IMG/VR virus record: IMGVR_UViG_3300047160_031539
Location: 9,633-73,632 of that record
Strand: one strand, 5' to 3'
Length of the DNA: 64,000 nt
From: a virus
Taxonomy: Duplodnaviria; Caudoviricetes
A program made the translations under genes and the position numbers. Positions 105-62,256 of this stretch are shown here, piece by piece. The notes beneath the pieces were generated by a model. The model saw only the letters and a list, made by a program, of their open reading frames with translations, searched no databases and was not told where the DNA came from. Position 1 is the first letter of the stretch, and every line of letters begins with the position of its first letter.

Positions 105-1036
105 GGGAGCCCCCCGAGGAGCCAGCCCCGGGGCTTGCCGAAGGGCACCCGGTCGGCCTCCTGGCACTTGTGCCAGAGTTCCTTCTCCGACCAAGGGGGC
201 TGGCACCGAGGATTGTAGTAAACGGCCAGCACGCTGAAGGCGTCCTCGGCCCCCAGGTCGAAACCGTAGGCCACCGCCCGGGCCACGTACATCGTGACCG
301 AGTGGCCCCCCTGACCGCTGACCGCCGGCCGGCAGGCGTTCACGTAAGCAATCGCCCGCTTGAGCCGGGCGGCCGGGGTATCCGGCAGGTCCGGTGGCCG
401 CCGCGGCACGGCCACCGTCACCTCCGGCGGCCGCAGCCACGACAGGAGCCAGCCAGGAGCCTCCGGGAGGGGGTGGTCCCACGGGGCCCTCTCCCAGGCG
501 TAGGGGCCCTTGCCGTTGACGCTGGGAGGCGCCACCACGTAGCCGCCCCGCCCACGAACGTCGATCGGCAGACGACGGTGGTTCTTGCGGTTAGTGACCT
601 CCAGAACTAGGGGCCAGCGGAAATACCAGTGCTCGCCCCCTGAGCCCGTCCGGGCCAGTGGGCCCTCGGGCAAGAGCCCCCACCGCACCTGCAGACCCAT
701 GAGGGCGTGCACCCCCTCCCCACCGTCGGGCCCCAGGACCCACAGGCCCGAGGCCGGCCCCGTGGCAACGCCCACGTTCGCCCCCGGCCAGCGCCGCCAC
801 CAGTGACGCACCACGAACGGGTCGCTCGTGGCATCCAGGACCCCGTGCTCCGTCCGGGGATGCTTGCCGGCCGAACGGCCACAGGCCTTGCCGCACGAAC
901 AGCGGCCCTCAGCGACCGAGTGCAAGGGCAGAATCTGCCAGCCCAGGCCGGCCAGGGCCAACGCCGCCTCACCCCTCAGGTGGCGCAATTGCGCCACCTG
1001 AGAGGCTTCCGCAGGTTCCTGAATCTCAGACGGCAT
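101..1036 (-). CDS. Bifunctional DNA primase/polymerase (Prim-Pol) domain protein
   Basis: Motifs AALALAGLGWQILPL, GKHP...HGVLDATSD, NVGVATGPASGLWVLGPD, TGSGGEHWYF and IDVRGRGGYVVAPPS. Start is ATG 1036 or GTG 1045. Confidence 0.9.
   Translation of the reverse strand: MPSEIQEPAEASQVAQLRHLRGEAALALAGLGWQILPLHSVAEGRCSCGKACGRSAGKHPRTEHGVLDATSDPFVVRHWWRRWPGANVGVATGPASGLWVLGPDGGEGVHALMGLQVRWGLLPEGPLARTGSGGEHWYFRWPLVLEVTNRKNHRRLPIDVRGRGGYVVAPPSVNGKGPYAWERAPWDHPLPEAPGWLLSWLRPPEVTVAVPRRPPDLPDTPAARLKRAIAYVNACRPAVSGQGGHSVTMYVARAVAYGFDLGAEDAFSVLAVYYNPRCQPPWSEKELWHKCQEADRVPFGKPRGWLLGGLP
977..1000. repeat. 24-bp palindrome, copy 1 (perfect)
   Basis: CAGGTGGCGCAATTGCGCCACCTG inside the 5' end of the Prim-Pol ORF (encodes QVAQLRHL). 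Confidence 0.95.
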
Positions 1037-2642
1037 GGGGCACACTCAGGTATTGGGGGTAAAGCTGCCGGACGAGCTTCTTCCAGTCCTTGCCAGACGG
1101 GACGTGCCGCAAGAGGTCGGAGGGCCACTCGCCCGTCTTCTCGCGGAAGCGGTGGGCCGCCCACCCCGCCGCACGGCCCAGGGCGGCCGCCTGCCCCAGG
1201 CAGGAGTCCCACAACTTTTGTTGTAACTCCAGGGCCACCGAGCCCCGGAAGGGCCCACCGTCACGCTCCTGATGCACCAGGAGCCCCGGTTTGATTCTAA
1301 CGGGCGGCCGCAGGCGGTGGGGCAGGACGTGCCCACAGGTCGGGCACTCGATCGAGCCCTGGAACATACGCCCGCACTTGGGACAGACGACCGGCCGCCG
1401 GGCCTTCTTGGCCTGGGCGTGCCGCCTGTCCACCGTGTCGGCCGCGTCCAGGGTCCACTCCACGTCGTCGTCGGGCCAGCCGTGGTCCCAGACCGCCCCG
1501 GCGTGGTCGAGCAGGTAGGCCACCCCCTTGCCGCCGAAGGGACGCATGATCCGCCCGCACGCCTGGGCGAACAGGACCCGGCTGCCACACCTCCGCAAGA
1601 GGATGCAGGCCGCCAGGCACGGCACGTCCACGCCCTCGACCATCAGGCCGACCTGGCAGATCACCAGGGTCAGGCCCCGCTCGACGTTCCGGACGATCTC
1701 GTCCCGGGCAAAGTCGGTGGTGTTGGCGTCCATGTACTCGGCCGAGATCCCCGCGGCCAGGAACTCCCGGCAGGCGTCCCGTGCCTGGGCCCTCTTGCCG
1801 GCGAACAGGACCGTCGGCAGGCCGGCGGCGTGCTGCTTCCAGGTCGAGACCGGGTCGGCCGTCAACCCCCGCGGCCGCCGGCCGTAACGGGACTGCTTCT
1901 GCCCTTCGGGGGCGTAGCACTCCACCGCCACCAGGTGGCCGTCGGCAATCAGCCGCCCCATCGAACAGGTACACTCGATGGCGTGCCAGAAGTCGCCCAG
2001 CCCCGCCCCGTCCGGCCGGGCCGGAGTGGCCGTCAGCCCGACCACCGCCGCCTGGGGGTAGTGGGCCAGGATCTGCTGGTAGACGTCCAGGCTCCCGTCC
2101 TCGCCCTGGATCGGGTCGAGGTTGTGACACTCATCAGGGATCACCAGGTCGGCCGGCGGGAAACCCACCCAGTCGTTGTTAAGGCTGCGTGAGAGCAGGG
2201 TGTCCCGGCTGGCCACCTGCACCGGCGCCGCGGGGTCACCCCGGACGCCGGCCATCAGGACCCCCGAGGGAATCCCCCAGTCGTCGAACGTGGCCGCCGC
2301 CTGGTCGATCAACCGGCGGCGGTGGGCCAGGAAGAGCACCCGCTTGCCCTTGGCCACCGAGCGGCGGACGATCTCGGCGGCACAGCAGGTCTTGCCCGCC
2401 CCCGTGGGGGCCTGCAGGATGACCCGCCTGGCCCCCTGCACCAGCCGGGAACGTACCCGCTCGACCACGTCCACCTGGTAATCCCGCAAGACCGGCAAGC
2501 CCCGGGGAACCGCAGGAATCGCGGGGGTCTCGGGAATCGCGGGGGTCTCGGGAATCGCGACAGTCTCGGGCGCCGCTACAGGGATTTCCATCCCGTCCGG
2601 CGAGCAGATGAAGGAAAAGAGTTCGCCCTGTTTCATCATCAC
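1026..2642 (-). CDS. SF2 DEAD/DEAH-box helicase with C-terminal Zn ribbon
   Basis: LRDYQ, APTGAGKT (Walker A), DECH, GLTATP, EGVDVP, QACGRIMR, then CPKC...CPTC. Confidence 0.92.
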   Translation of the reverse strand: MMMKQGELFSFICSPDGMEIPVAAPETVAIPETPAIPETPAIPAVPRGLPVLRDYQVDVVERVRSRLVQGARRVILQAPTGAGKTCCAAEIVRRSVAKGKRVLFLAHRRRLIDQAAATFDDWGIPSGVLMAGVRGDPAAPVQVASRDTLLSRSLNNDWVGFPPADLVIPDECHNLDPIQGEDGSLDVYQQILAHYPQAAVVGLTATPARPDGAGLGDFWHAIECTCSMGRLIADGHLVAVECYAPEGQKQSRYGRRPRGLTADPVSTWKQHAAGLPTVLFAGKRAQARDACREFLAAGISAEYMDANTTDFARDEIVRNVERGLTLVICQVGLMVEGVDVPCLAACILLRRCGSRVLFAQACGRIMRPFGGKGVAYLLDHAGAVWDHGWPDDDVEWTLDAADTVDRRHAQAKKARRPVVCPKCGRMFQGSIECPTCGHVLPHRLRPPVRIKPGLLVHQERDGGPFRGSVALELQQKLWDSCLGQAAALGRAAGWAAHRFREKTGEWPSDLLRHVPSGKDWKKLVRQLYPQYLSVPHAV

Positions 2643-3559
2643 AGCTTGCCCTCCGCCTTCAGCTCCTCGTGGCGGTTAAGCGGCATGTGCCCCTGGCCCA
2701 GGCAGTTGTCACAGCCCTGGCCGTGACACCACTCGCAGACCAGGTCCGCCTGGCCGTGCTTCAAAACCTCCAACAGCACCTCGGCCTCCTGCTGCATCCG
2801 GTCCAGGTGGTTCTCCAGATCGACGTGCCTCATGAAGAGGAAGGACTTGAGCCGCTTGCGGATGTCGTTGAGGTAACGCCTCTTGCCCATCTCCGCGATC
2901 AGGCCCTCGCACCAGGCGACGGCCTCCGGAATCGCCCGGTCGCTGAAAACGTCGATCAGCCCGGCCGGCACGACGGTGCCGTGGGCGTCCTTGAGTACCG
3001 CCGGGTTGCCATTGTCCTCGGCCTTCTCCGGCTTGCCGTTGGCGGCGGCCGGCTTGCGGCTCCTCGCGCCCTTCTTTTGCGTCTTGCCGTCCCGGCCGAC
3101 CCTCTCCTCCTGGGGAGACAGGTTCCCCGTCTCCTCGAGCTTCTGGCGGACCCGGCCGACCGCCCGCCGGCTGGCCCCCGTCTTCTTGGCCACCTTGCGG
3201 TCGGACTCCTGCGGGAAGAGGCTCAAGTAGGTCGCCACCGTCTCCTTGATCTGGTCCCGGTCGAGGTGCCGGCGGCCGAAATTCAACTCGAAGCACAGCC
3301 GGCGGGCGTCGTCCTCGTCCTTGCAGGTGATGTGCTCGAAGGTAACGTTGCGATCGGACAGGCCAAGCTCCGCCGCGATCTCAAGCCTGTTCATCCCGTC
3401 AATGATGTTGTTGTGCTGATCGACCAGGATGGGGTAATAGACCTTCCCGGCCCTCTGGATGGCCTCCAGGAGCCTCTGGCGGTCCTCCAGGTTGGGGCCC
3501 GGGATGTCGTCGTACCAGGGCAGGTTGTAGGTTCTTCGCGCGAAGGTAACGTGTCGCAA
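2639..3559 (-). CDS. ParB-like N-terminal domain plus HTH protein
   Basis: LLEAIQRAGKVYYPILVDQHNNIIDGMNRLEIAAELG, then HTH SDRKVAKKTGASRRAVGRVR. AAGGAGG RBS precedes a TTG start. Confidence 0.75.
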   Translation of the reverse strand: MRHVTFARRTYNLPWYDDIPGPNLEDRQRLLEAIQRAGKVYYPILVDQHNNIIDGMNRLEIAAELGLSDRNVTFEHITCKDEDDARRLCFELNFGRRHLDRDQIKETVATYLSLFPQESDRKVAKKTGASRRAVGRVRQKLEETGNLSPQEERVGRDGKTQKKGARSRKPAAANGKPEKAEDNGNPAVLKDAHGTVVPAGLIDVFSDRAIPEAVAWCEGLIAEMGKRRYLNDIRKRLKSFLFMRHVDLENHLDRMQQEAEVLLEVLKHGQADLVCEWCHGQGCDNCLGQGHMPLNRHEELKAEGKL

Positions 3560-3670
3560 GGCAAACCTCCTTAAATGCCGGCCCGCCGCCGCCCCCTGGC
3601 GGTGAGCCGGGGCAACGGGTCTGTGCGTCCGTTCCCCCGACACAGGGGACGGCGGGCGGGTCCGGCAAGA

Positions 3671-3749
3671 CAGTAGGGCGAACGTCAGTGGGGCGAACGT
3701 CAGTGGGGCGAACGTCAGTGGGGCGAACGTCAGTGGGGCGAACGTCAGT
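3671..3749. repeat. Intergenic tandem array of 5 x 15-bp direct repeats
   Basis: CAGT(A/G)GGGCGAACGT at 3671, 3686, 3701, 3716 and 3731, plus a partial CAGT. Confidence 0.95.
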
Positions 3750-4569: not shown

Positions 4570-4572
4570 GGC

Positions 4573-4785
4573 TCACCCCCTCGCCTTCAGGGCCGCGAAC
4601 TCTTCCGCAATCAGGTCGTGGTCGGGGTTCTCGCCCAGGACCCACGACAGGAGACTGATGGAAGCGACAAGCACCTCATGGGCCACACTCGGGCAACCGA
4701 CCACCAGCCCGCCACAGGCAGGGCAAAGACACGAAGAGGCCAGCATCGCGTCACGGTGGGCACGAATCTCGCGTTCGTCTTTCAA
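4573..4785 (-). CDS. Hypothetical protein
   Basis: 70-aa ORF packed between neighbours; CLCPAC motif. Confidence 0.55.
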   Translation of the reverse strand: MKDEREIRAHRDAMLASSCLCPACGGLVVGCPSVAHEVLVASISLLSWVLGENPDHDLIAEEFAALKARG

Positions 4786-5569: not shown

Positions 5570-5793
5570 AAGTGATCTCCGAAATAGTCCTTGGTGCCGG
5601 TCCCCGGCCTGCGACCAATCGCGCGAACACGGACGCCGTCGGGGACGTGGAACCGGCGAGAAGTAATGTCCTCATAAGACGGCACGATGCCCTGGCACAA
5701 CTCCAGGGCACACTCCACGCAAAGGCACTTGCGGCATGACTCGACCCAGCTGGCCGGCTCGTCCCCGCAGCAGTCACAGGTGACGCTTCTCAC
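5566..5793 (-). CDS. Small Cys-rich hypothetical protein
   Basis: GTGA overlaps on both sides; CDCC...CRKCLCVEC. Confidence 0.55.
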   Translation of the reverse strand: MRSVTCDCCGDEPASWVESCRKCLCVECALELCQGIVPSYEDITSRRFHVPDGVRVRAIGRRPGTGTKDYFGDHL

Positions 5794-7127
5794 GGGTCGA
5801 TCTCCACGCACGGGATGTGGGCGGGGCAGTCCTCCCCGGAACCGCCGACGACGACCGCCAGGACCCGCAGGCCGCGACAGTCTTCGGGGGTCGGCCACTC
5901 GCCCCCCAGGATTCCGTCGGTGATGATGACGACAACGTCCGGCTTCCTCTTGCGGGCGGCCTCCAGGCCGGGGGTCATGAGCGTACCGCCGCCGCCCCGG
6001 TTGAGCCGCTCGATGTCGCGGGCCGAGGTTAAACGCACCTCGGCGTGGACCGCCGCGTCACACGCATACCCCCAACACTGCCCCCCGACAGCCAGGACCA
6101 GGCCCAGCACCTCCGAGAGGGCCTCGTCCTCGGCCGTCCGGCTGTCCGCAATCTGGGCCATCATTGAGCCCGACGTGTCCAGGACGACCGCCACGGTCGG
6201 GACCGGACAGTGGGTCGAGGGGGACAGGGGCCACCCGGGACGACCGGCCGAGTGGAGCGACCGGCGACCGGGCCGCCGCCAGGTCCAGTCGGAGGCCCCC
6301 GCCACACTGGCCAGGGCCTGGCGGGCCAGCCCCCGCAGCCGCCGCCGCCAGTCCACCTTCGGCGGCCGCAGGTGCGACTTGGCCCAGGCCATGAGCCCCG
6401 CCGGGACGGAATCCCGGCCGCGGGCGTGTGCCACGGTCGCCAGGGCCGCCCGCCTGAGGGCGATCTCCCGCTCCAGGGGCCCGACGGGGGGCGGAGTCGT
6501 GATTGGACCGTCAGCTCCTCCGGAAGCGGAACGACCGCTTATCCCCCCGCCGGGCCCCGGGGCGGAATCCCCCTCGCCCTCCACCGGGTTGTTCGCACAT
6601 CCCCCACAGGCCCCGCCACAACCCGGGGCCCACAGGACGCAGCCGGGCTGCACCTTCCCGACCTCGGGGTGCCGGTAGTATTCCTCCGCCGTCAGGCCAC
6701 GGGCCATGCCGATGTCCTCGGGCAGGAGCGGCTGGCCCGGCAGGCCCCAGCCGGCCTGCAGCACGTCGTCGTTGATCTCCCGGTCCTGCGCCGCGTTGGC
6801 GCAGACGGCGTCCATGCCCAGCATCCGCTCGGCGTGCTTGCGGACCAGGTGCCCGATCTCGTGGAAGAGCACCGCCGCGACCCCGTCATGGCCGGCGTCC
6901 TTCTTGCCGGCCAGGCGGTCCAGCTTGCCCACCTGCTCCTCCCGATACCAGGCCAGCACCGTCTCCGGGTCGTAGTAGAGCCTCCAGCCCCCATCGACGG
7001 CCAAGGTTCTCAGGCCAGGCTTGGAGACCATCCGCACCTGCCACAGGACCGCCCCCAGGTAGGGGTGGCGGCCGTAGACCCGCATCCGGGCAGCCGCCAC
7101 CACGTCTTCGGCCCTCACCTCACTCAT
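5790..7127 (-). CDS. Metallopeptidase-like (HExxH) plus vWA domain protein (DUF2201-like)
   Basis: TLAVDG..RLYYDPE, VLFHEIGHLVRKH, VAVVLDTSGSM (MIDAS), GGGGT, IIITDG. Confidence 0.88.
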   Translation of the reverse strand: MSEVRAEDVVAAARMRVYGRHPYLGAVLWQVRMVSKPGLRTLAVDGGWRLYYDPETVLAWYREEQVGKLDRLAGKKDAGHDGVAAVLFHEIGHLVRKHAERMLGMDAVCANAAQDREINDDVLQAGWGLPGQPLLPEDIGMARGLTAEEYYRHPEVGKVQPGCVLWAPGCGGACGGCANNPVEGEGDSAPGPGGGISGRSASGGADGPITTPPPVGPLEREIALRRAALATVAHARGRDSVPAGLMAWAKSHLRPPKVDWRRRLRGLARQALASVAGASDWTWRRPGRRSLHSAGRPGWPLSPSTHCPVPTVAVVLDTSGSMMAQIADSRTAEDEALSEVLGLVLAVGGQCWGYACDAAVHAEVRLTSARDIERLNRGGGGTLMTPGLEAARKRKPDVVVIITDGILGGEWPTPEDCRGLRVLAVVVGGSGEDCPAHIPCVEIDP

Positions 7128-7393: not shown

Positions 7394-7417
7394 CAGGTGG
7401 CGCAATTGCGCCACCTG
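7394..7417. repeat. 24-bp palindrome, copy 2 (perfect)
   Basis: 5 nt after the stop at 7423, just before the RBS of the 7377 gene. Confidence 0.95.
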
Positions 7418-8713: not shown

Positions 8714-9901
8714 TCAGTCCTCCCAGATCTGCATGAACTCGCACAGGACGCCACAGACCTGCCGGGCGGCCGGGCACTTGGCCAGGTCCACCTGGGGCCG
8801 CCGGGCACGGGAGGCCAGGCTCCGGGCCGGCAGGAGCACCACGTCCTTACCCAGTTTCAAATCGAGGCCGCGGCGCAACACCTGGAAGGCCGCCTCCCAC
8901 CGCTGGGCCCGGCGGAGGGGGGACAGCTTCTTGCCATCGACCCCCTGGGTGGCCAGTCCCGCTTCCGAGACGGCCAGGAGGGTCGCGAAGGTCCGGTCTG
9001 GCCTGATCGGGTCGTCCTCCAGCAGGCCGGGGTCGGCCAGGAGGGCCTCCGGATCGGGCAGGTCGGCGTCGGCCAGCCACACGAGCCAGGCCCCCTGGCC
9101 GGCGTCCCCGGAGCCCTCCAGGGCCACGGAGGGCCCCAGGCAGCCCTGGGCCAGGGCCGGGTACAATTCGGGCCGCCGGGCGGCCCGGCAGGAAGCCAGG
9201 AGCCGCAGGGCCGACTCCCAGGTCCGGGGGGTGGCGTAGGCCGGAGGGGTCCTGCCCAGAACCTTGCCCACGTCCTCATGCAGGGCCGCGGGGAACGACC
9301 GGGTGAACGCCGCCCCGAGGGCCCGGGCGTTGGCGTACTCCTTCTCCCAGGCGACCGGGTCCAGGCGGACGGCCCCGTCCTGGCCGCCGTGGCCCATGAG
9401 CCAGGCCGACCAGGCGGCCGGCTCGGGGGACGGCCAGGCCATGTGGACGAACCGGTTGGCCAGGGCTGGCGCCAGGTCCCAGCCCCCCGCCGCCTGGTCC
9501 ACCGGGTTGGCCGCCGCACAGCGGCGGACGCAGGGGGGCAGCCGCTTTCCGGCGATCATGCCGTCCAGGGCCAAACCCATAATCGCCGGCTGCAGGGCCG
9601 GCGGGGTCGAGGAAACCTCATCCAGGAAGACCAGGGCGTCCCGGCCCTCCTCGACCATCCGGTAGGCCCAGGCGGGCATCGGGTAGTTGAGCACACTCTG
9701 GTCGGCGGAGGGGACCGGCACGACCCCGAAGGCCCCCTCGCCACGCTCGGCGGGGCGCAGCATCTCCACGGCCCAGCCGAGGTGCTCGGCCAGGTCGAGG
9801 ATGCGGCGGGTCTTCCCGATGCCAAAATCACCCCAAATCAGCGGCGGCAAACAGCCCGGCGTCTGTAGCACCAGGCTCAGACTCGCGATCTCGTCGGACA
9901 C
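8714..9901 (-). CDS. MoxR-like AAA+ ATPase
   Basis: WGDFGIGKT (Walker A), LVFLDEVS (Walker B), AAANP, ALANRF. GAGGAG RBS plus GTG. Confidence 0.88.
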   Translation of the reverse strand: MSDEIASLSLVLQTPGCLPPLIWGDFGIGKTRRILDLAEHLGWAVEMLRPAERGEGAFGVVPVPSADQSVLNYPMPAWAYRMVEEGRDALVFLDEVSSTPPALQPAIMGLALDGMIAGKRLPPCVRRCAAANPVDQAAGGWDLAPALANRFVHMAWPSPEPAAWSAWLMGHGGQDGAVRLDPVAWEKEYANARALGAAFTRSFPAALHEDVGKVLGRTPPAYATPRTWESALRLLASCRAARRPELYPALAQGCLGPSVALEGSGDAGQGAWLVWLADADLPDPEALLADPGLLEDDPIRPDRTFATLLAVSEAGLATQGVDGKKLSPLRRAQRWEAAFQVLRRGLDLKLGKDVVLLPARSLASRARRPQVDLAKCPAARQVCGVLCEFMQIWED

Positions 9902-9983: not shown

Positions 9984-10007
9984 CAGGTGGCGCAATTGCG
10001 CCACCTG
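9984..10007. repeat. 24-bp palindrome, copy 3 (perfect)
   Basis: 4 nt after the HTH gene stop and 16 nt upstream of TTGACA. Confidence 0.95.
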
Positions 10008-10011: not shown

Positions 10012-10254
10012 TCAGCCGACGGCCGTCAGCGGGATGTGCGGGCGACCGACCGTCACCCCGGGGACGTGTTCGGGCAGGCGAAAGCCGACCAGGTCGCCGC
10101 GGCGGACCAGCCAGATCCGGCCGATTCGCGAGGCCGGCAGCAGCTTGCGGTGAATCCAGTAGCGGACCCGGTACTCCGGCACCCGGCACAGCCGGGCAAC
10201 GTCCGGCACCGAAAGCGGCTGGTCCGCGAAAATATTGTCTTGGTCCATGAACAC
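10012..10254 (-). CDS. Excisionase/MerR-like (HTH_17-type) DNA-binding protein
   Basis: LSVPDVARLCRVPEYRVRYWIHRKLLPASRIGRIWLVRRGDL. Confidence 0.82.
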   Translation of the reverse strand: MFMDQDNIFADQPLSVPDVARLCRVPEYRVRYWIHRKLLPASRIGRIWLVRRGDLVGFRLPEHVPGVTVGRPHIPLTAVG

Positions 10255-15023: not shown

Positions 15024-15685
15024 CACGACCCCCCGCCGCGAATTTCAGGTGGCGCAATTGCGCCACCTGAAGAAGTCGTCCAGAACGCCACGTTGCGCAT
15101 GAGCCCGTGCCCCGACAGGTTGCCCTCGTACCAGACCTCCCGGGCCACGACGGCATGACCCCCGCGGCCGACCGCGGCCAGCAGCCGATCCTCGGTGACG
15201 TAGCAGTGGGGGTAGTCCCTGCCGTCATCGAGATCCTCGTCGAGGATCTGCACGTCGAAGGCAGCGTTTTCGCCCCTGGCCAACAAGTCGGCCAGGTGCT
15301 CGTCCAGGCCCTCCAGCGGGACGTGCTTGAGACAGGAGAAGCTCACGACCAGGTCGTGCGTGGCCCCGTCCCACGGCACGCCCGCGTCCGTGAAGGAGGC
15401 CCGCTCGAGGGGGAAGTCCAGGAACCTCTCCCGGGCCATCCGCAAGAGTGCCAGGGACGCCTCAACGCCGCTGTAGGTCAGGGAGGGGTGATTGAGGACC
15501 AGCGTCCGGGCCAGCAGACCCGAATGACAGCCCAGCTCCAGGACAGTACGGATGCCGGCCCGCGTGATCCTCGGCCCGACGAACGCGGCGGCCTGCAGGT
15601 ACTCGCGGTTGAGCAGCCAGCCGACCTCCTCGTCGGTGGCGTGACTGCCCTCGTCGAACCACTCGCCGATCGTCTTTTTGCTCAC
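15023..15685 (-). CDS. Class I SAM-dependent methyltransferase
   Basis: VLELGCHSG, YSGVEAS, HDLVVSFSCLKHVP. Confidence 0.8.
   Translation of the reverse strand: MSKKTIGEWFDEGSHATDEEVGWLLNREYLQAAAFVGPRITRAGIRTVLELGCHSGLLARTLVLNHPSLTYSGVEASLALLRMARERFLDFPLERASFTDAGVPWDGATHDLVVSFSCLKHVPLEGLDEHLADLLARGENAAFDVQILDEDLDDGRDYPHCYVTEDRLLAAVGRGGHAVVAREVWYEGNLSGHGLMRNVAFWTTSSGGAIAPPEIRGGGS
15046..15069. repeat. 24-bp palindrome, copy 4 (perfect)
   Basis: Within the last codons of the methyltransferase (GGAIAPP). Confidence 0.95.
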
Positions 15686-19429: not shown

Positions 19430-19453
19430 CCGGTGGCGCAAATGCGCCACCTG
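19430..19453. repeat. 24-bp palindrome, copy 5 (variant CCGGTGGCGCAAATGCGCCACCTG)
   Basis: 4 nt after the stop at 19458 and abutting the GGAGG RBS of the 19417 gene. Confidence 0.92.
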
Positions 19454-21946: not shown

Positions 21947-21970
21947 CAGGTGGCGCAATTGCGCCACCTG
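21947..21970. repeat. 24-bp palindrome, copy 6 (perfect)
   Basis: Intergenic between 21988 and 21928. Confidence 0.95.
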
Positions 21971-24780: not shown

Positions 24781-24804
24781 CAGGTGGCGCAAATGCGCCA
24801 CCTG
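24781..24804. repeat. 24-bp palindrome, copy 7 (variant with AAAT centre)
   Basis: 2 nt after the GT9 stop and 9 nt upstream of TTGACG. Confidence 0.93.
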
Positions 24805-27617: not shown

Positions 27618-27641
27618 CAGGTGGCGCAATTGCGCCACCTG
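27618..27641. repeat. 24-bp palindrome, copy 8 (perfect)
   Basis: 6 nt after the stop at 27648, before the RBS. Confidence 0.95.
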
Positions 27642-33668: not shown

Positions 33669-33692
33669 CAGGTGGCGCAATTGCGCCACCTG
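33669..33692. repeat. 24-bp palindrome, copy 9 (perfect)
   Basis: Immediately upstream of the RBS of the 33658 gene. Confidence 0.95.
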
Positions 33693-35993: not shown

Positions 35994-36248
35994 ATGCCAG
36001 ACTGTCAACTCGACACCCTGCCGGACGAGGACGACGCCCTCAAGCGATTCTTCCTGGCGGACGTGCGGGACTCAAGTCCCGCCCGCGTCGGGAAGGCCCC
36101 CCGGCAACTCGCCGGGGCCGCGATCATGCTCCTGAACGCGGCCTTCGGGCTCTCCCGGCCCACCCGGGCGGCCCTGCACGCCAGCGTGGAGGCCATCCTG
36201 TGGACCCTGGACACCGAGTATGGACTTCGGCCGCCGACCTTACCATAA
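35994..36248 (+). CDS. Hypothetical protein
   Basis: 84-aa plus-strand ORF starting 21 nt after the mini-array and followed by terminators. Confidence 0.55.
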   Translation: MPDCQLDTLPDEDDALKRFFLADVRDSSPARVGKAPRQLAGAAIMLLNAAFGLSRPTRAALHASVEAILWTLDTEYGLRPPTLP

Positions 36249-36306
36249 TGGGGCCGTTGGGAAGCCAGGACGTGTGCCGCTGGTTGCGGCACACAACTCC
36301 CTGAGT

Positions 36307-36350
36307 AACTCCCCCGGCCGGCGGGTAAGCGGTCGGGGGAGTTCTCTTTT
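36307..36350 (+). terminator. Intrinsic terminator-like hairpin 1
   Basis: AACTCCCCCGGCCG/CGGTCGGGGGAGTT stem followed by CTCTTTT. Confidence 0.65.
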
Positions 36351-36428
36351 GGCGGCGACCGTGGTACGATTTTCCTGGTTGGTCTTCTGTAGTGCCCCCC
36401 GGCTCGTTGCCGGGGAAGGCTGCGCATG

Positions 36429-36470
36429 ACTCCCCCGGACGACTCCAGGCGTCCGGGGGAGTTTTCCTTT
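36429..36470 (+). terminator. Intrinsic terminator-like hairpin 2
   Basis: ACTCCCCCGGACG/CGTCCGGGGGAGT stem followed by TTTCCTTT. Confidence 0.7.
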
Positions 36471-36494
36471 CAGGTGGCGCAATTGCGCCACCTG
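36471..36494. repeat. 24-bp palindrome, copy 10 (perfect)
   Basis: Between terminator 2 and a candidate plus-strand promoter. Confidence 0.95.
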
Positions 36495-36496
36495 AC

Positions 36497-36524
36497 TTGC
36501 GTTTTCTCGCCCGAAAGGGATAAT
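36497..36524 (+). promoter_or_regulatory. Candidate sigma70 promoter for DHH-WYL
   Basis: TTGCGT, 16 nt, GATAAT. Confidence 0.4.
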
Positions 36525-36648
36525 GGCCGCCGGAAGGAACGGAAATTCCTTCCTCCTCACTCCCGACGCCCGAAACGTCGGGACCATCCTGCGGACGGCG
36601 GGTGCCGGTCTCCTTTCCCGGCACCCGCCGTTTTTCCAAGGAGTCGCC

Positions 36649-37518
36649 GTGTCCAAACCCCTCGTCCTCTTCCACGCCTCGTGCGCCGACGGCTTCTGTG
36701 CCGCCTGGATCGCCCACCGGGCCCTGGGAGACTGGGCCGACTACGTGGCCGTTAACTACGGCCAGGAGCCGCCCGACGTGACCGGCAGGCCCGTCTACAT
36801 CCTCGATTTCAGCTACAAGCGAGACGTTCTGGACGGGATGCTGCAAAAAGCTCAAAGCATCGTCCTGCTCGACCACCACAAGACCGCCGAGGCCGAACTG
36901 CGGCCTTTCGTGCTGGCCGGCGAGGATAGGCCGCGAAACCTGACCGTCTTCTTCGACCTGTCCAAGTCCGGGGGCCGCCTGGCCTGGGAGTACTTCTTCC
37001 CCGGCAAGCCGGCCCCGTGGCTGGTGGACTACACCGAGGACCGCGACCTGTGGCGGTGGGCACTGCCCGACTCCAGGGCCATCAGTGCCTACATCGCCTC
37101 CCACCCGTTTGAGTTCTGGCGGTGGGACGTGTGGGGGGCGTGCCCGATCGGGGACGCACCCTGGCGTGGCTGGATTCTGGAGGGGGAGGCCATCCTCCGC
37201 TACCAAGAGAAGGTCGTGAGCGAGCAGGCCAAGACCGCCGCCGAGGTCGAGATCGGCGGCTACAAGGTTCTGGCCGCCAACGCCGCCGAGGTCGAGATCG
37301 GCGGCTACAAGGTTCTGGCCGTCAACGCCACCCTGCTCACCAGTGAGATCGCCGGGAAGCTGGCCGAGGGCAGGCCGTTCGGGGCGACCTTCTTCGTCCG
37401 CAAGGACGGCAAGAAGGTCTGGTCGTTGCGGTCCCGGGAGGGCGGCATCGACGTGTCGGAAGTGGCCAAGGCCCTGGGCGGCGGCGGCCACCGGGACGCC
37501 GCCGGCTTTGTGGAGTAA
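36649..37518 (+). CDS. DHH/DHHA1-family phosphoesterase
   Basis: LFHASCADGFCAA, YILDFS, LLDHHKT, WSLRS, LGGGGHRDAAGF; AAGGAG RBS. Contains a 45-bp tandem duplication (37237-37326). Confidence 0.9.
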   Translation: MSKPLVLFHASCADGFCAAWIAHRALGDWADYVAVNYGQEPPDVTGRPVYILDFSYKRDVLDGMLQKAQSIVLLDHHKTAEAELRPFVLAGEDRPRNLTVFFDLSKSGGRLAWEYFFPGKPAPWLVDYTEDRDLWRWALPDSRAISAYIASHPFEFWRWDVWGACPIGDAPWRGWILEGEAILRYQEKVVSEQAKTAAEVEIGGYKVLAANAAEVEIGGYKVLAVNATLLTSEIAGKLAEGRPFGATFFVRKDGKKVWSLRSREGGIDVSEVAKALGGGGHRDAAGFVE

Positions 37519-37522
37519 CCTC

Positions 37523-37777
37523 GTGGACACGGTCACGTTCCGCTACAAAAACCACCGCGGCGAGGAGGCCGTCCGGCGGGTGCGGCCGATCCGGGTCTGG
37601 TTCGGCTCGACGGCCTTCCACCCCGGGCCGGGCTGGCTCCTGGAGGCCTGGGACCTCGACCGGCAGGCCACCCGGGACTTCGCCATGTCCAACATGCTCA
37701 GCGGGTGGGAGCGAATCCTCCCTCAGTGCCCGGCCAAGGAACTGGATGAGGCCACCGGGCAGCAGGCCGTGGCGTAG
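37523..37777 (+). CDS. Stand-alone WYL-domain protein
   Basis: VTFRYKNHRGEEAVRRVRPIRVWFG...WLLEAWDLDRQATRDFAM. Confidence 0.82.
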   Translation: MDTVTFRYKNHRGEEAVRRVRPIRVWFGSTAFHPGPGWLLEAWDLDRQATRDFAMSNMLSGWERILPQCPAKELDEATGQQAVA

Positions 37778-41505: not shown

Positions 41506-41529
41506 CAGGTGGCGCAATTGCGCCACCGG
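41506..41529. repeat. 24-bp palindrome, copy 11 (variant ending CCGG)
   Basis: 1 nt after the stop at 41531. Confidence 0.93.
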
Positions 41530-46794: not shown

Positions 46795-46818
46795 CAGGTG
46801 GCGCAATTGCGCCACCTG
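46795..46818. repeat. 24-bp palindrome, copy 12 (perfect)
   Basis: 2 nt after the portal stop. Confidence 0.95.
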
Positions 46819-49120: not shown

Positions 49121-49144
49121 CAGGTGGCGCAATTGCGCCACCTG
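49121..49144. repeat. 24-bp palindrome, copy 13 (perfect)
   Basis: 3 nt after the stop at 49148, overlapping into the RBS. Confidence 0.95.
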
Positions 49145-53540: not shown

Positions 53541-53564
53541 CAGGTGGCGCAATTGCGCCACCGG
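53541..53564. repeat. 24-bp palindrome, copy 14 (variant ending CCGG)
   Basis: 2 nt after the stop at 53567. Confidence 0.93.
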
Positions 53565-55868: not shown

Positions 55869-56049
55869 CCATCCAGCCCTTAAAGCCCGAGCGGGCCTTG
55901 CCGTAAGCGGCCGCGGCCGCGATGCGTTTGGCGTGGGCCATCGACTTGGGCGTCGTGTTACCGATCTTGCCCGAGTGCTTGTAGCTGTGCAGCATCTCGG
56001 CGATGTTGCCGCGGATCGTCTGTTTCCCCTTGCCCGGCTTGAGCGGCAT
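55849..56049 (-). CDS. Small basic phage protein
   Basis: MPLKPGKGKQTIRGNIAEM...RIAAAAAY..AR. Confidence 0.65.
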   Translation of the reverse strand: MPLKPGKGKQTIRGNIAEMLHSYKHSGKIGNTTPKSMAHAKRIAAAAAYGKARSGFKGWMDGHCGG

Positions 56050-56057
56050 GACTCATC

Positions 56058-56914: not shown

Positions 56915-56918
56915 GAGA

Positions 56919-57611: not shown

Positions 57612-57624
57612 GGCCCACCTCCGT

Positions 57625-57648
57625 CAGGTGGCGCAATTGCGCCACCTG
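57625..57648. repeat. 24-bp palindrome, copy 15 (perfect)
   Basis: Between the 57660 stop and the RBS of 57611. Confidence 0.95.
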
Positions 57649-57659
57649 AAACTCAAGCC

Positions 57660-58424: not shown

Positions 58425-59635
58425 CAGAAACCACTGACGGTCGCGGGGCAGACCACCTTGGGGACGTAAAGGAGCGGAACGGCGTTCAGGAGGCCGATCA
58501 GGTCCACGGCCGAGGGCTGGGTAACGTACTCGTGCCAGAAGTGGTAGCCCCGGCGGAGGACGCCCGGCATGCCCGGGTTTTCCACCACGTACTCGCCGCC
58601 GTGGTAAATCTGGCTCCACTCGCTGGACGGGCGGGTCAGGAAGAACGCCGTGTTGTCGGGCACCATCTTGGTGAGCGTGGCGGTCGAGGGGGCGGTCGAG
58701 TAGCTGGGGTCGATCTGGCTGTTGATCACCAGCACCTCGTCCGTGATGTGCCAGGTGATGGTCGGGTCGGCCCGGAGGATCGCCTCGAAGTCGCCGGTCG
58801 GCTCGCCGTCGGCCCCCGTCTCGGGCACGTTGTCGTACTCCGCGAACGGCGTGTTGGCGGAGCCGGCCGTGTTGCGCACCTCGTTGTTGGTGAGCACCCG
58901 GTACCACGTCGGGCTGTTGACCCACACGTCCGTCAAGGCGTAGCCCGAGAGCTGCATGAAGGCGGCCTTGATCGACATGATCTGCTGGATCAGGGGGGCC
59001 CCCGGGTTCGACCACGGCACGGTAAGGATATTCCCGGTCCCCAACATGTTGAGCTGGTTCTTGTTGCCGGGCGGGACCTGGAAGGGGACCTGGAAGCCGA
59101 AGGCGTTGGTGCCGGTCAACTGGCCGATCGAGACCAGGATGTTGTCGCCCTGGTAATTCAGGTACAGATTGTCCTGCAGCATCCCCGAGGTCATGACCTC
59201 GACGACGTTGTTGAACTGCCGGGCGATGTGGCCGATCATCCGCTGGATGTAATTCTGCCCGCCCGTGTCGATGACCGAGTTGGGGCCGATGACGGGGGAG
59301 AGGTTGCCCAGCTCCTCGTAGGTGAGCGGGATCTTCATGTGGAAGCGGGCGCAGGAGACCGGCACGCTGCCGATCGGGTTGACCGGGATCGTGGCGGGGC
59401 CGGTGCCGGGGGCACGGCCCTGGGCGATGACGCGGGTCGTGTCGAAGATCCGGAAGGTCGCGTAGCGGGTGTCGCCCTGGACCGTGTGCGGGCCCGTCAG
59501 GGAGACCTTCTCGCCGTCGAACTTGTTGGTCTGGAAGCCCATCCACCGCCCCAGCCGTCCCTGGCCCGGCCGGATGCGGCTGATGACCTTGAGGATGACC
59601 TGGGGCTGCAGGAGTTCGTGAAGGGAGACCGTCAT
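58424..59635 (-). CDS. Major capsid protein (lambda gpE-like, HK97 fold)
   Basis: 403 aa following protease and decoration genes; IARQFNNVVEVMTSGMLQ, PDNTAFF, AVPLLYVPK. Confidence 0.78.
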   Translation of the reverse strand: MTVSLHELLQPQVILKVISRIRPGQGRLGRWMGFQTNKFDGEKVSLTGPHTVQGDTRYATFRIFDTTRVIAQGRAPGTGPATIPVNPIGSVPVSCARFHMKIPLTYEELGNLSPVIGPNSVIDTGGQNYIQRMIGHIARQFNNVVEVMTSGMLQDNLYLNYQGDNILVSIGQLTGTNAFGFQVPFQVPPGNKNQLNMLGTGNILTVPWSNPGAPLIQQIMSIKAAFMQLSGYALTDVWVNSPTWYRVLTNNEVRNTAGSANTPFAEYDNVPETGADGEPTGDFEAILRADPTITWHITDEVLVINSQIDPSYSTAPSTATLTKMVPDNTAFFLTRPSSEWSQIYHGGEYVVENPGMPGVLRRGYHFWHEYVTQPSAVDLIGLLNAVPLLYVPKVVCPATVSGF

Positions 59636-59666
59636 CGTCTTTTACTCCTCGGTTGGGTCTCCCCGC

Positions 59667-60461
59667 TCAGGAAACGGTGATGGTGTTGGCCCCGGCCGAA
59701 TCGTTCTGGGCAATCCACTTGGTGGCGCCGGGGTTGGAGAAGAGGGTCAGGCCGCCGCCGATCAGCTGCCCGGCCGTCGAGAAGGTCAGCGTGTTGGCAC
59801 TGGCGTTGTTGAACGCCACGATGTTGCCGCCCTCGTTGCTGGTGATGGCGAAGTTCTGGTTGGCGACCACGCGGAGGCCGATCGTGATGCCGTTCTGGAT
59901 GGGCGGCAGGGTGAGCGTGACCGGGCCCGTGGCGCCCGTGTTGTCGAACTGGGCCGCGTTGTCCTGGGGGACGACGACCGTGTAATTGGCCGTGATCGAC
60001 TCAAACCGTCTCCAGGGGAAGTAGTGCAGGCCCGGGATGTTGAAAACGTCGTCGAAGGTGAAGCGGTCGGCCATCTGCTGGCGGGCCTGGTAGTCCAGGC
60101 CGATGATGGCGGCCGCCTTGACCGGGCCCGAGACGAGCAGGCCGTAGAAGCGGGGCTGGGGGGCGCCCGTCAGGATGTTCTGCAGGCGGATGGCCGTCAG
60201 GAGGACGCCCGCGGCCACCTCGGAGCCGTCGGTGTTGCCGGCCAGGTAGTTGGTGTAGGTCCCGTCGGCCGTCCTCTGCCCGAGGAGGAGCCCCACCCGC
60301 AACTCGTAGGTCGGGGTGTTGCCCGGGTCGGTACACAGGCTGGAGATTGTCCCGCCGATGATGAGGCCCAGGCCGGCCGGCCCCCAGCGGAAGGCGCTTT
60401 CGTAGGTCTCGGCCGGCGGCTGGACGCCGGGCTGGAGTCCCCAAACGTCAGTGTAGAACAA
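59667..60461 (-). CDS. Head decoration protein (lambda gpD-like N-terminus) with C-terminal extension
   Basis: LRVGLLLGQRTADGTYTNY...DGSEVAAGVL. Confidence 0.72.
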   Translation of the reverse strand: MFYTDVWGLQPGVQPPAETYESAFRWGPAGLGLIIGGTISSLCTDPGNTPTYELRVGLLLGQRTADGTYTNYLAGNTDGSEVAAGVLLTAIRLQNILTGAPQPRFYGLLVSGPVKAAAIIGLDYQARQQMADRFTFDDVFNIPGLHYFPWRRFESITANYTVVVPQDNAAQFDNTGATGPVTLTLPPIQNGITIGLRVVANQNFAITSNEGGNIVAFNNASANTLTFSTAGQLIGGGLTLFSNPGATKWIAQNDSAGANTITVS

Positions 60462-60478
60462 CTTTTGGCCCTCCGAAT

Positions 60479-60502
60479 CGGGTGGCGCAACTGCGCCACC
60501 TG
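60479..60502. repeat. 24-bp palindrome, copy 16 (variant CGGGTGGCGCAACTGCGCCACCTG)
   Basis: 1 nt after the protease/scaffold stop. Confidence 0.9.
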
Positions 60503-60503
60503 G

Positions 60504-62099
60504 CTACTTCCCGTTGGCCTGGGGGACGTTGATGCCAACATTCCGGCAGAACTCGTCGGCGACATCGTCCATGCGCTTCTGGCTGATCTCGCCGGGGTGG
60601 GCGTCCTGGGGGTGGTCCTGCTGGGTGGCGTGGCGGGACAGGAGGAGGTCGGGCAGGCTCACCATCGTCTCGACCACTTCCAGGGCGGCGTTGGCCGTGT
60701 CGTGGATGGTGCCGTCGTCGGCGATGGACAGCCGGGCGTCCTTGACCATTGCCAGGACCTTCTCGCGGAAGGCGGGGCTGGGGTTCCGGCGGCAGGCGGC
60801 CTCGACGCGGCGGTCGCGGACGGCCTTGGCCTCGGCCAGCATCCGCTGCTGGAGGGCGGCAGTCTTTCTGCCCTCGACCTCCTGGTGGGAGAGCATGGCA
60901 TCGACCATCGCCCGTGCGGTCGGGTCGGTGATGCCCTTGGCCTTCTCCCGGGCGTCGGCCAGGCTCATGTACAGGGGCGGCTGCTCCTGGACGACGTTCA
61001 TCCGCTGGCCGGGCGGGTTGGGCGGCAGGTCGTTGGGGTTCTTGCCCCCGGGCGGCTGATTGGTCAGGTTGTTGGGGTCAGTGCCCATGTCAGCTCCCAT
61101 CTTGCCGCCCTCTTTCATTTTCGACATCACGGCCTTGTACAGGCGCTCGAGGAAATTGTCCCCCGTCGTGCCCTCCTCCAGGAGCACGCCCATCGTCTCC
61201 AGGAGGTCGCCGATCACCTCGTGGACCGGGATGTCCCCGTCGGAATCGACGAGGCTGGGCTCCATGCCGGGCATCCCCGGCATCCCGGGCTGTCCGGGCT
61301 CGCCGGGCGGGGTGGTCCCGGGGGCCGGCGTGCCCTCGGGCTTGGCCGGCACGTCGCCGACCTTGGCATCCCCGGGGGGGCCCTTGGCAGGACCACTAGG
61401 GGGCTCCTTGGGCTTGGGCTTGGGCTTGGCGGCGGCCTCCATCAACTCGGGGGCGGCCAGGGGGATGCCGCCCGAGTAGAGGGAGAAGGCCACCGGGTAG
61501 GCCGGCTTGAGGAGGGTGCCCTCGCCCGAGAGGAGGCCGGCCCGGGAGAAGGCGAGGCCCTTGCCGGGGGCGTAGGAGGCGCCGGGGTGGGCCGGGTCGA
61601 AGGCCTGGGTGTGCAGGAGGCCGGCCCAGGACATGGCCGCGGCCACCGACGGGAAGGGCTGCTGCTTGGAGATCCGCGGGCGGGTGGTCAGGGCCAGGTG
61701 GCCGACGACGCCCTCCCACTTGCGGCCGTCGCCGTCCATGAAGGACGTGATCCAGGGGCTGGTCCAGCGGATGGTCTTGGGCAGTTTCTTGGCGATCTCG
61801 GGGTCCTGCACGTCCACGAGCGACCACAGGCCCTCGCCGTGCAGTCGCCAGTCGGAGACCCAGCCGGCGTTGTTGAGCAGGTTCTGGGCGGCCTTCTGGG
61901 GGGCGGTGAGGGGGACGGCGGTGGGCTGGTGCTCGACGGGGACCGGGATGGACAGTCCCGCCTGCAGCATCCGCTTGCCCTGGTCGTGCAGGTGGCGGAT
62001 GCCCTCGGGCGTGAAGCGGATCGTCCGCGGCAGGTTGGTTTCCTGGTCGAGGTACCAGTAGGTCCCGGGCCCCGGGATGACTTCCTTCCAGACGAGCAT
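60504..62099 (-). CDS. Capsid maturation protease/scaffold (Mu gpI-like)
   Basis: PVPVEHQ...AGWVSDW..HGEGLW...RWTSPWI...VGHLALTTRP, followed by a Pro-rich linker and a helical scaffold. Confidence 0.78.
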   Translation of the reverse strand: MLVWKEVIPGPGTYWYLDQETNLPRTIRFTPEGIRHLHDQGKRMLQAGLSIPVPVEHQPTAVPLTAPQKAAQNLLNNAGWVSDWRLHGEGLWSLVDVQDPEIAKKLPKTIRWTSPWITSFMDGDGRKWEGVVGHLALTTRPRISKQQPFPSVAAAMSWAGLLHTQAFDPAHPGASYAPGKGLAFSRAGLLSGEGTLLKPAYPVAFSLYSGGIPLAAPELMEAAAKPKPKPKEPPSGPAKGPPGDAKVGDVPAKPEGTPAPGTTPPGEPGQPGMPGMPGMEPSLVDSDGDIPVHEVIGDLLETMGVLLEEGTTGDNFLERLYKAVMSKMKEGGKMGADMGTDPNNLTNQPPGGKNPNDLPPNPPGQRMNVVQEQPPLYMSLADAREKAKGITDPTARAMVDAMLSHQEVEGRKTAALQQRMLAEAKAVRDRRVEAACRRNPSPAFREKVLAMVKDARLSIADDGTIHDTANAALEVVETMVSLPDLLLSRHATQQDHPQDAHPGEISQKRMDDVADEFCRNVGINVPQANGK

Positions 62100-62202
62100 T
62101 GTCTTGTCCGGCGTGTAAATCCCTGATTTTTCAGGGATTTGGGTTCGGGCGGCTCTGGTGAAGCCTCCGTTGACCTCACGCTACCCGAAGTGCCGGACGA
62201 GT

Positions 62203-62208
62203 TGTCAA
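62203..62208 (-). promoter_or_regulatory. Candidate -35 box of the head-operon promoter
   Basis: TTGACA in an AT-richer intergenic region upstream of the protease; no clean -10 at 17 nt (TAGCGT at 19 nt). Confidence 0.3.
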
Positions 62209-62232
62209 GAAGAATTTCTCAGGTGCCCTTCG

Positions 62233-62256
62233 CAGGTGGCGCAATTGCGCCACCTG
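62233..62256. repeat. 24-bp palindrome, copy 17 (perfect)
   Basis: 2 nt after the stop at 62259 and 24 nt upstream of TTGACA. Confidence 0.95.

Follow-up and report, generated by a model that had tools for sequence, protein, structure and literature searches.

A strictly conserved 24-bp palindrome dispersed over the gene junctions of an uncultured phage, a candidate docking site for a dimeric DNA-binding protein

The window analysed here is a stretch of 64,000 nucleotides, bases 9633–73632 of a 73,632-bp virus record (IMGVR_UViG_3300047160_031539) from an uncultured phage, which encodes a PrimPol, a helicase and a Rad52-like protein. A 24-bp palindrome occurs in this window 17 times, against zero copies expected and none found in 100 dinucleotide-preserving shuffles. 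A sequence-only reading of the window had located these 17 copies, counted twelve of them as perfect, noted an invariant core with three kinds of centre, and described gaps of 1.75–6.4 kb without any clustering. All of these observations were reproduced, and the motif search across the full record that the same reading had proposed yielded three more copies, 20 in all. It is clear that the array is a real feature, of a kind that is known from other phages and is unexplained there.

Perfect copies lie at 977–1000, between the helicase and PrimPol genes; at 7394–7417, with a stop codon 5 nt before and the next start 16 nt on; and at 9984–10007, 4 nt past the stop of an HTH_17 gene, where the −35 element of a sigma70-like promoter (10/12) follows 16 nt downstream. 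The perfect copy at 15046–15069 is the only one within an open reading frame, in its last 15 codons. The copy at 19430–19453 has the centre AAAT and a changed outer position; that at 24781–24804 has the centre AAAT, a stop 2 nt before it and the −35 element of another sigma70-like promoter (10/12) 9 nt downstream. Further perfect copies were found at 21947–21970, at 27618–27641 (GGAGGG and then ATG directly after), at 33669–33692 and at 36471–36494, the last in the only plus-strand gene island, 7 nt past a canonical plus-strand terminator (36428–36463). An outer position is changed in the copies at 41506–41529 (stop 1 nt before) and 53541–53564 (stop 2 nt before), and the copies at 46795–46818 (stop 2 nt before), 49121–49144 (stop 3 nt before, ATG 9 nt on) and 57625–57648 (three genes downstream of the major head protein gene) are perfect. 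The centre AACT is present at 60479–60502, 1 nt past the stop of a 531-aa gene that precedes the head genes, and the final copy, at 62233–62256, is again perfect, with a stop 2 nt before and TTGACA-N17-TAGCGT 24 nt downstream.

Both 8-nt arms of the 20-nt sequence GGTGGCGC-N4-GCGCCACC were invariant in all 20 copies, and a search of the window at up to three mismatches found no further, degenerate copies. The centres seen were AATT, AAAT and AACT, and outer variation in the window copies was confined to positions 2 and 23. There were 0 changes in 320 positions of the 16-base core and 10 in 160 centre and outer positions (Fisher P = 1.4e-5), which indicates that the exact sequence is under selection and not pairing alone, although some invariance of the core is to be expected of a young hairpin family, because single stem mutations are harmful. 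In 16/20 copies the centre is the self-complementary AATT, so that the dyad symmetry is continuous through the middle, and the flanks lean to a symmetric T...A extension (T at −1 in 13/20, P = 1e-6; A at +1 in 9/20). Five of the six outer changes are one and the same half-site variant (CA to CC), occurring in either arm. The pair 2/23 varies in five copies and its pairing is broken in four of them; the copy at genome position 2534 carries a compensating double change there. Transitions that preserve pairing through G-U were possible in RNA at 160 core positions and none was observed. The sequence common to the copies is only 24–26 bp long, and their flanks are unrelated.

The spacing of the copies was significantly even. 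The coefficient of variation of the gaps was 0.37, compared with ~0.9 under three null models, and 0/20,000 simulations were as even (P < 5e-5). Spacing measured in base pairs was also more even than the number of genes per block (CV ~0.46). If the copy at 36471 were absent, the gap there would be 7.8 kb.

Nineteen of the 20 copies occupy junctions, where they separate co-directional genes of the coding (−) strand, each placed past a stop codon and ahead of the following RBS. In the sequence-only reading fifteen of the window copies had been counted as intergenic; the mostly intergenic position holds, but by our own gene calls the number is 16/17, the exception being the copy at 15046. Thirteen copies begin 1–6 nt past a stop codon (the eleven already reported for the window among them), and in about 14/20 the next start codon is only 9–19 nt away, a distance too short for a promoter, so transcription must pass through those copies. 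A promoter-like site follows only ~4 copies. Junctions that lack the motif are mostly those of overlapping, translationally coupled genes, and otherwise of genes no more than 12 nt apart. Genome-wide punctuation, as the array had been called, is an accurate description. The fit between stop and RBS is weak evidence for a translational role, because any non-coding insert must show it in a genome so densely packed.

In the predicted mRNA fold, every copy forms a stable, perfect 10-bp stem with a 4-nt loop and the RBS is left free. We rejected a Rho-independent terminator, as the GC-rich hairpin is present but the U tract is absent and the tail is purine-rich (the RBS). A T-rich tail was seen only at the copy at 36471, on the plus strand only, and ordinary hairpin-plus-U terminators exist elsewhere in the phage. 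A T7-type RNase III site, an irregular hairpin some two helical turns long that includes an internal loop, agrees with the palindrome in its intergenic position only and was also rejected.

Upstream of terL, a non-coding block dense in repeats contains three direct copies of the half-site CAGGTGGCGC (genome positions 1688, 1698 and 1726; spacing 10 and 28 nt); these half-sites are without partner arms for the full 10-bp hairpin. An iteron array (5 × 15 nt) lies right after the gene of a ParB-like protein (window about 3560–3640).

This ParB-like protein (2639–3559, minus strand; 306 aa) is the first of two candidate binders. It has a ParB-type N-domain, an HTH fold and a C-terminal Cys cluster, and it matched PHROG ParB-like families and, by sequence, a pNOB8-type ParB-N domain in the PDB. 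The best fold matches of its structural model (pLDDT >90 over residues about 20–150) were all ParB, Spo0J, Noc or KorB. The CTP-binding motif GERR(x)R is replaced by DGMNR, which the alignment places with the DGHHR motifs of ParB-like nuclease and methylase-fusion families. In 12 viral loci encoding homologues no dispersed palindromes were found, only two local clusters, and the iteron array could be the true target of this protein. No ParA-type ATPase or KorA-type co-repressor partner was found among the ~60 proteins scanned (~40 small proteins were outside the scan); the sole ATPase found besides the helicase is a MoxR-like AAA+ protein (GIGKT, FLDE) adjoining a DUF2201/VWA gene. The second candidate (10012–10248, minus strand) is a 78-aa MerR-like DNA-binding protein (Pfam HTH_17, E 4.2e-9, 37 bits against a cut-off of 27). 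We found no link between the palindromes and either the ParB/KorB-fold or the MerR-like HTH protein.

The motif was absent from all relatives found; these are the nearest available, with 30–68% MCP identity, and its absence there may reflect sampling. Judged by this absence, the motif has probably expanded in the present phage lineage. At the junction equivalent to window position 60479, hairpins that bear no relation to the palindrome, each with T after it, are present in the relatives L039 and L041. Relatives showed no hairpin at two further corresponding junctions. No multi-copy source was detected in 185,579 species genomes or 241 million metagenome records, and the motif is thus not an abundant host repeat of the REP or MITE kind, an origin against which the sequence-only reading had set its own view. 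Matches in genomes and metagenomes were single and unrelated, except for two small palindrome families. In a Ktedonobacteraceae (Chloroflexota) genome the same 18-mer stands, without variation, at the apex of a family of long-hairpin repeats, and in an uncultivated bacterium the same palindrome occurs as a conserved triple cluster. If these two cases are not a coincidence, a widespread cellular protein would read the sequence and be exploited by the phage.

To our knowledge, reports of dispersed, strictly conserved palindromes go back to 2015 or earlier and cover several phage groups; a binder or a function has been shown for few of them. The precedents named in the sequence-only reading agree with the array to differing degrees: stoperators lack symmetry and have a direction, and the hairpins of T7 RNase III sites are longer and irregular. 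Palindromic sites of the ParB/KorB type, such as parS, and the dyads of Cluster O mycobacteriophages are closer. In Cluster O (Corndog and relatives) a 17-bp dyad repeat, TGTTCGG-N3-CCGAACA, has an unexplained function, and its authors predict a dimeric DNA-binding protein for it (PMC4351075). As in our phage, one short dyad sequence is present in tens of copies genome-wide, the arms are invariant and the centre variable, and the copies are mostly intergenic and mostly away from promoters; a protein with a ParB-like domain is likewise encoded, as are glycosyltransferases (PMC4351075). The two arrays differ in repeat length (24 bp here, 17 bp there), in placement (19/20 in junctions here, about a third inside genes there) and in distribution (even here, denser toward one end there), and the Cluster O motif is common to all five phages whereas ours is in no relative found.

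The IncP plasmid RK2, on which KorB is associated with 12 palindromic OB operators (PMC11790492), offers a similar combination of a dispersed palindrome and a protein with a ParB N-domain and HTH fold on a mobile replicon of ~60–70 kb. A KorB-type clamp travels some 1.5 kb by sliding away from the site where it was loaded, so spacing would matter. In contrast to the sites of KorB, ParB and Noc (OB 13 bp, parS 16 bp), ours is 24 bp long, and unlike ParB and KorB the phage protein has no GERR CTP motif, no ParA/KorA partner that we could find and homologues without dispersed palindromes. Microbacterium Cluster EG phages have 18-bp inverted repeats, GATCAACC-NN-GGTTGATC, which are also situated in short intergenic gaps, 14–22 bp before starts compared with 9–19 nt here (PMC7302621), but there 8–10 copies are gathered at one genome end and are common to related phages, whereas here 20 are evenly spread. 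Cluster A stoperators (L5 gp71) resemble our array as many dispersed intergenic sites, which are thought to stop read-through when bound (summarised in PMC4351075). They were rejected as an equivalent: they are asymmetric, transcription-oriented and occur in temperate phages whose repressor is known, whereas the palindromic symmetry of the sequence here is perfect and the ~60 proteins scanned yielded no integrase or immunity repressor. REP/REPIN sequences (PMC3733652) share with our copies the form of GC-rich 20–40 bp palindromes after stops in operons, but a REP/REPIN-RAYT element was rejected too, as there was no GTAG/CGTC head, no RAYT or Y1 transposase match among the proteins scanned and no high-copy family in the host genomes searched.

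We give about an even chance to the view that a dimeric protein with sequence specificity and a genome-wide role docks at the palindrome on double-stranded DNA. The binder may be phage-encoded, either the ParB/KorB-fold or the 78-aa MerR-like protein, or it may be a host factor. With a copy every 1.7–6.4 kb, no part of the chromosome would be far from a site, and the role could be the loading of a spreading or sliding protein, a block to read-through transcription, or the guiding of a DNA-modifying or organising activity. The even spread suits a genome-wide role, not the control of individual promoters. Copies would be found between stop and RBS because this is the only place where a 24-bp non-coding insert fits in a tightly packed genome. 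The ParB N-domain with an HTH fold defines a class of proteins that bind dispersed palindromes, and we counted the modelled fold in favour of docking on DNA.

Alternatively, the site might act in the mRNA, where the 10-bp GC-rich hairpin would be a barrier to 3′-to-5′ exonucleases, a processing mark or a site for a sequence-specific RNA-binding protein (an antiterminator or translational repressor), and long one-strand transcripts would be divided into 2–6 kb blocks, each opening with its own strong RBS. We consider this possible but tend to doubt it. There is established precedent in host REP hairpins, which stabilise the mRNA upstream of them, and the coding-strand position between co-directional genes, the tight distances to stop (13 copies) and start (about 14 copies), a hairpin that dominates every predicted fold with the RBS free, and the marking of block boundaries where other junctions are mostly overlapping or coupled are all consistent with such a role, as are the compensating double change and the hairpins of L039 and L041. 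However, stem variants are absent from the core (0/320), though the pair 2/23 is broken in four of the five copies in which it varies; a self-complementary loop is needless for an RNA hairpin; the half-sites near terL are unable to form one; and the stem is too short and regular for classical RNase III and lacks the U tract for intrinsic termination. The hairpin-free junctions of relatives speak against it as well, and the copy at 36471 comes after a plus-strand terminator, so transcription would rarely reach an mRNA element at that place. The evidence leans to sequence-specific recognition on DNA as against an RNA hairpin.

Another role at the DNA level that requires a signal symmetric between the strands and regular in spacing, for example hairpin or cruciform priming for a PrimPol/helicase replisome, or secondary packaging sites tied to the terL half-sites, seems to us very unlikely. 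The palindrome would give an identical hairpin on both strands, an AT centre with GC arms favours cruciform extrusion, and the even spacing, the replication genes and the half-site cluster fit, but the tie in sequence is limited to the proximity of that one cluster, the iteron array is a better origin candidate, and we know of no precedent for such an arrangement of priming signals or secondary packaging sites. We find it equally hard to believe in a mini-repeat, selfish or produced mechanically (REP- or REPIN-like), that has spread through the permissive gaps of one lineage without function for the phage. A lineage expansion, the unrelated flanks and the Ktedonobacteraceae family, which shows that the palindrome can belong to a proliferating element, would agree with this, but a selfish spread predicts neither the even spacing nor the small largest gap, the invariant core against a variable rest indicates purifying selection, no GTAG/CGTC head or target-site duplications are visible, no transposase or RAYT was found among roughly 60 proteins scanned, and the genome and metagenome searches gave no multi-copy source.

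A more specific form of docking on DNA, in which the copies are regularly spaced loading sites from which one protein spreads in the manner of ParB/KorB, without the canonical CTP motif, and so coats, marks or silences the entire chromosome of the phage, is in our opinion unlikely; the coating protein would be the ParB-fold phage protein lacking the CTP motif or a hijacked host factor. The present case is unusually clean, with 24 bp, 20 copies, none degenerate, even spacing and two candidate DNA-binding proteins on the same genome, and a 24-bp duplex with two small proteins is simple enough to be approached in vitro, with an answer that might account for an entire class of features in phage genomes. 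Should the role be coating or marking of the whole genome, it would bear on the shielding or organisation of phage DNA.

The palindrome array is a real and statistically robust feature, selected for exact sequence and even spacing. The sequence-only reading had claimed 17 copies of GGTGGCGC-N4-GCGCCACC in the window, and all of them were present exactly where it had placed them, whereas 100 dinucleotide-preserving shuffles gave no match. When the 24-mer was searched with up to three mismatches, the same 17 window sites only were recovered, and the array is therefore without degenerate copies. That reading had also counted twelve perfect copies with variation only in the centre and outer bases; our search likewise gave 12 perfect copies out of 17, and the changes were AAAT (two copies) or AACT (one copy) in the centre and substitutions at outer positions 2 and 23.

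The whole 73,632-bp IMG/VR record (L083, GC about 68%, CheckV completeness 86%), of which the window covers positions 9633-73632, contains 20 copies. The gene for the large terminase subunit (L083:1-1540) is truncated by the record start, and the gene order of a relative places the terminase homologue just ahead of the counterpart of the gene that stands at the opposite end of the phage record. The cut terminase gene and this gene order suggest that the genome is circularly permuted and near-complete. A terL Walker A segment was seen upstream of the first gene call at the start of L083, and the remainder of terL may be an open ORF on the minus strand at the record's other end (window 63833-64000).

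The gaps between successive copies range from 1,729 to 6,417 bp, with a coefficient of variation (CV) of 0.37. Three null models were used (random positions, a random pick of all junctions and a random pick of non-overlapping junctions), for which the mean CV was 0.88-0.93; in each model, none of 20,000 simulations was as even as the observed array, and a maximum gap no larger than that of the array was also rare (P about 1e-4). The blocks varied less in length, measured in bp, than in gene content (1 to 9 genes each), and the constrained quantity seems to be physical distance rather than gene count.

A codon-usage gene call gave about 96 genes, only three of them on the plus strand. Among the products identified were replication-type proteins (a helicase, a Rad52-like annealase and PrimPol), a sugar cassette (GT9 heptosyltransferase, C-methyltransferase and PfkB kinase), an amine oxidase, the major head protein, a tape-measure-like protein and the large terminase. 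The replication region also encodes a DUF2201 metallopeptidase/VWA protein and a MoxR-like AAA+ ATPase with GIGKT and FLDE motifs (window 5790-7127 and 8714-9901), two proteins that typically occur together in MoxR-VWA systems. The sole plus-strand gene island (window 35994-37777) encodes a DHHA1-domain phosphoesterase and an 84-aa WYL-domain protein. The copies occupy 19 of the 95 gene junctions; the copy-free junctions are mostly overlaps or gaps of 12 nt or less, and 11 of the copy-bearing gaps measure 36-64 nt, barely more than the motif and a ribosome-binding site (RBS). On the coding strand, 13 of the 20 copies start 1-6 nt past a stop codon and about 14 end 9-19 nt ahead of the next start codon, with a GGAGG-like RBS abutting the palindrome. 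This tight fit is no independent support for a translational role, because any 24-bp non-coding insert must show it in this genome.

We then compared the positions within the palindrome. The 16 core positions carried no change in 320 sites, whereas the eight centre and outer positions carried 10 in 160 (Fisher P=1.4e-5); the core is therefore held by selection, and the copies are not merely young. Transitions that would preserve pairing as G-U were not seen at any of the 160 eligible core positions, and the pair 2/23 is broken in four of the five copies that vary there. The centre AATT is self-complementary, the flanks lean to a symmetric T...A extension (T at -1 in 13 of 20 copies, P=1e-6; A at +1 in nine of 20), and an identical half-site variant, which makes up five of the six outer changes, occurs in either arm. 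Judged from the sequences, these symmetric features suggest that what is recognised is a particular sequence of two-fold symmetry.

Half-sites were also found in a 420-nt non-coding block upstream of terL, outside the window. Here (L083:1600-1760) three direct copies of the arm CAGGTGGCGC are spaced by 10 and 28 nt, and this 10-mer has no other occurrence in the genome beyond the full sites. The block further contains a dense run of GGCGCC-containing repeats (about nine GGCGCC sites), a perfect palindrome of 28 bp (GGCGCCTGTCCAGT/ACTGGACAGGCGCC) and, closer to terL, two repeats of about 35 nt that are richer in AT; it may serve as a pac site or in control. Direct half-sites are unable to fold into the complete 10-bp hairpin, and this speaks for recognition at the DNA level. 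The reading we prefer, with moderate confidence, is that the palindrome is a putative docking site on double-stranded DNA, where a dimeric protein would bind and act genome-wide.

The other possibility raised by the sequence-only reading was an mRNA hairpin, which might act, for example, as an exonuclease barrier or as the site of an RNA-binding protein; we consider this the main rival, though less likely than the docking site. When six contexts were folded, the palindrome formed the dominant hairpin of 8-11 bp and the RBS was left largely free, which is compatible with this explanation. On the other hand, the half-site array near terL cannot pair fully, and the copy at 36471, in the sole plus-strand island, lies 7 nt past a canonical plus-strand terminator (36428-36463), so that an mRNA element there would seldom be transcribed. 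Removal of this copy would leave a local gap of 7.8 kb. At the junction that corresponds to the one with the copy at 60479, two relatives (L039 and L041) have their own unrelated hairpins followed by T, and at two other equivalent junctions the relatives have a stop codon and RBS only.

A selfish repeat is improbable. That the palindrome could be an abundant host REP or MITE, which the sequence-only reading held would refute its interpretation, was looked for and is ruled out: the exact 20-mer gave only single matches, in 14 stretches from diverse species among 185,579 species genomes and in 19 stretches of metagenomes. In an IMG/VR search for the core, no other contig had more than one match in the fetched stretch. 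The relatives, which were identified from their major head proteins (30-68% identity) and from a neighbouring gene, have the structural gene order in common; their fetched loci contained no repeated palindrome of any sequence, and in five whole relative records motif matches were no higher than the control level. The tetranucleotide similarity of the phage to hosts did not discriminate between them.

Two kinds of bacterial match were found, and we treat both as leads only. Homologous bacterial metagenome contigs carry GTGGCGCAAyTGCGCCAC three times within about 170 nt (L076:3352-3524; L064:348-520; L075:9908-10080; L078:7741-7913), with GGTCACTACAA after each of the first two copies. This cluster is a conserved non-coding element with varying neighbours, Fic/CysS on one side and BNR, multicopper-oxidase or unknown genes on the other, and it had no Rfam, tRNA or tmRNA match. 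In a Ktedonobacteraceae MAG, the same 18-mer palindrome forms the apex of five hairpin repeats (L103:78-95; L098:1501-1518; L104:175-192; L105:49-66; L106:1499-1516); the apex is invariant, and the outer stems vary among copies and are complementary within each. The longest repeats have arms of up to 60-80 nt, and three copies lie at contig ends. A perfect palindrome carries only half its length in information, so these matches may be coincidence in a very large database, and no homologue of any phage protein was found on those bacterial contigs.

Some other DNA-level signal is similarly improbable. Several further candidates were rejected. A Chi-like site does not fit, since outside the palindromes the half-site 8-mer occurs five times forward and four times reverse and is unenriched over the roughly six per strand estimated from base composition. 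Of the sigma70-like promoters in the first 40 kb, the best two follow copies by 16 and 9 nt, and two more promoter-like sites do so by 24 and 12 nt; only about four copies thus precede a promoter-like site, and the unphased distances to the -35 element (9, 12, 16 and 24 nt) argue against classical operator or activator geometry. A phage RNA polymerase promoter was dismissed because the large proteins yielded no RNA polymerase and the palindrome has no direction. The copies have no U tract, the bases downstream being purine-rich RBS, and the phage has canonical terminators elsewhere, which rules out an intrinsic terminator. One of these, with a 13-bp stem and CTTTTTT (10300-10272, minus strand), lies directly upstream of the 78-aa HTH_17 gene, which is boxed in by this terminator and a palindrome copy. 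The next gene follows most copies too closely for a promoter to fit in between, and transcription must therefore pass across these copies.

Two phage proteins are candidate binders, and neither was tied to the palindrome by any test run. The first is a 306-aa protein (window 2639-3559) assigned by sequence to ParB-like PHROG families and the pNOB8-type ParB-N structure. Its predicted model is confident over residues 20-150, and the best fold matches of the model are all ParB, Spo0J, Noc or KorB and span the N-domain and HTH. It has DGMNR in place of the GERR CTP motif, and a C-terminal Cys cluster. We rejected a link to the array by co-occurrence: close homologues were absent from viral contigs, the distant ones are mostly fused to DNA methyltransferases, and 12 viral loci with homologues had no dispersed palindromes. 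Local palindrome clusters occurred in two of these 12 loci and in none of 45 control loci. Each has three identical palindromes (TTGCCAGC/GCTGGCAA at L089:18039-18310 and ACGCGCA-N5-TGCGCGT at L094:4323-4500), which may be parS-like sites for the local ParB-N and HTH homologues. A partition system was rejected, as ParA was not found among the proteins scanned and the ATPase is MoxR-like. Five tandem 15-nt iterons (CGTTCGCCCCACTGA; window 3560-3640) follow the ParB-like gene directly, between it and the Rad52-like gene, and may be a replication origin or the real target of the ParB-like protein. The second candidate is the 78-aa HTH_17/MerR-like DNA-binding protein (window 10012-10248), whose stop codon lies 4 nt ahead of a copy; a precedent comes from phage D29, in which a small MerR-like repressor binds GC-rich repeats (PMC12266134).

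The precedents named by the sequence-only reading fit unevenly: the palindrome lacks a defining feature of stoperators and of T7 RNase III sites, as it does of REP elements and of intrinsic terminators. Other analogues are the phiC31 CIR repressor sites and the P1 C1 operators. The closest case in the literature is that of the Cluster O mycobacteriophages, with more than 30 copies of a 17-bp dyad repeat that has invariant arms and a variable centre and lies mostly off promoters; these phages encode a ParB-like domain protein, and the authors predict that dimeric DNA-binding proteins act on the repeats, the function being unexplained (PMC4351075). In Microbacterium Cluster EG phages, an 18-bp inverted repeat is present in 8-10 copies located 14-22 bp ahead of start codons (PMC7302621). 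This kind of array is already known, though unexplained, and the present one is marked out by its length, even spacing and lineage-specific appearance. On plasmid RK2, KorB, a ParB-family clamp loaded at dispersed palindromic OB sites, acts about 1.5 kb away (PMC11790492), and such clamp action at a distance would give meaning to the spacing of the copies.
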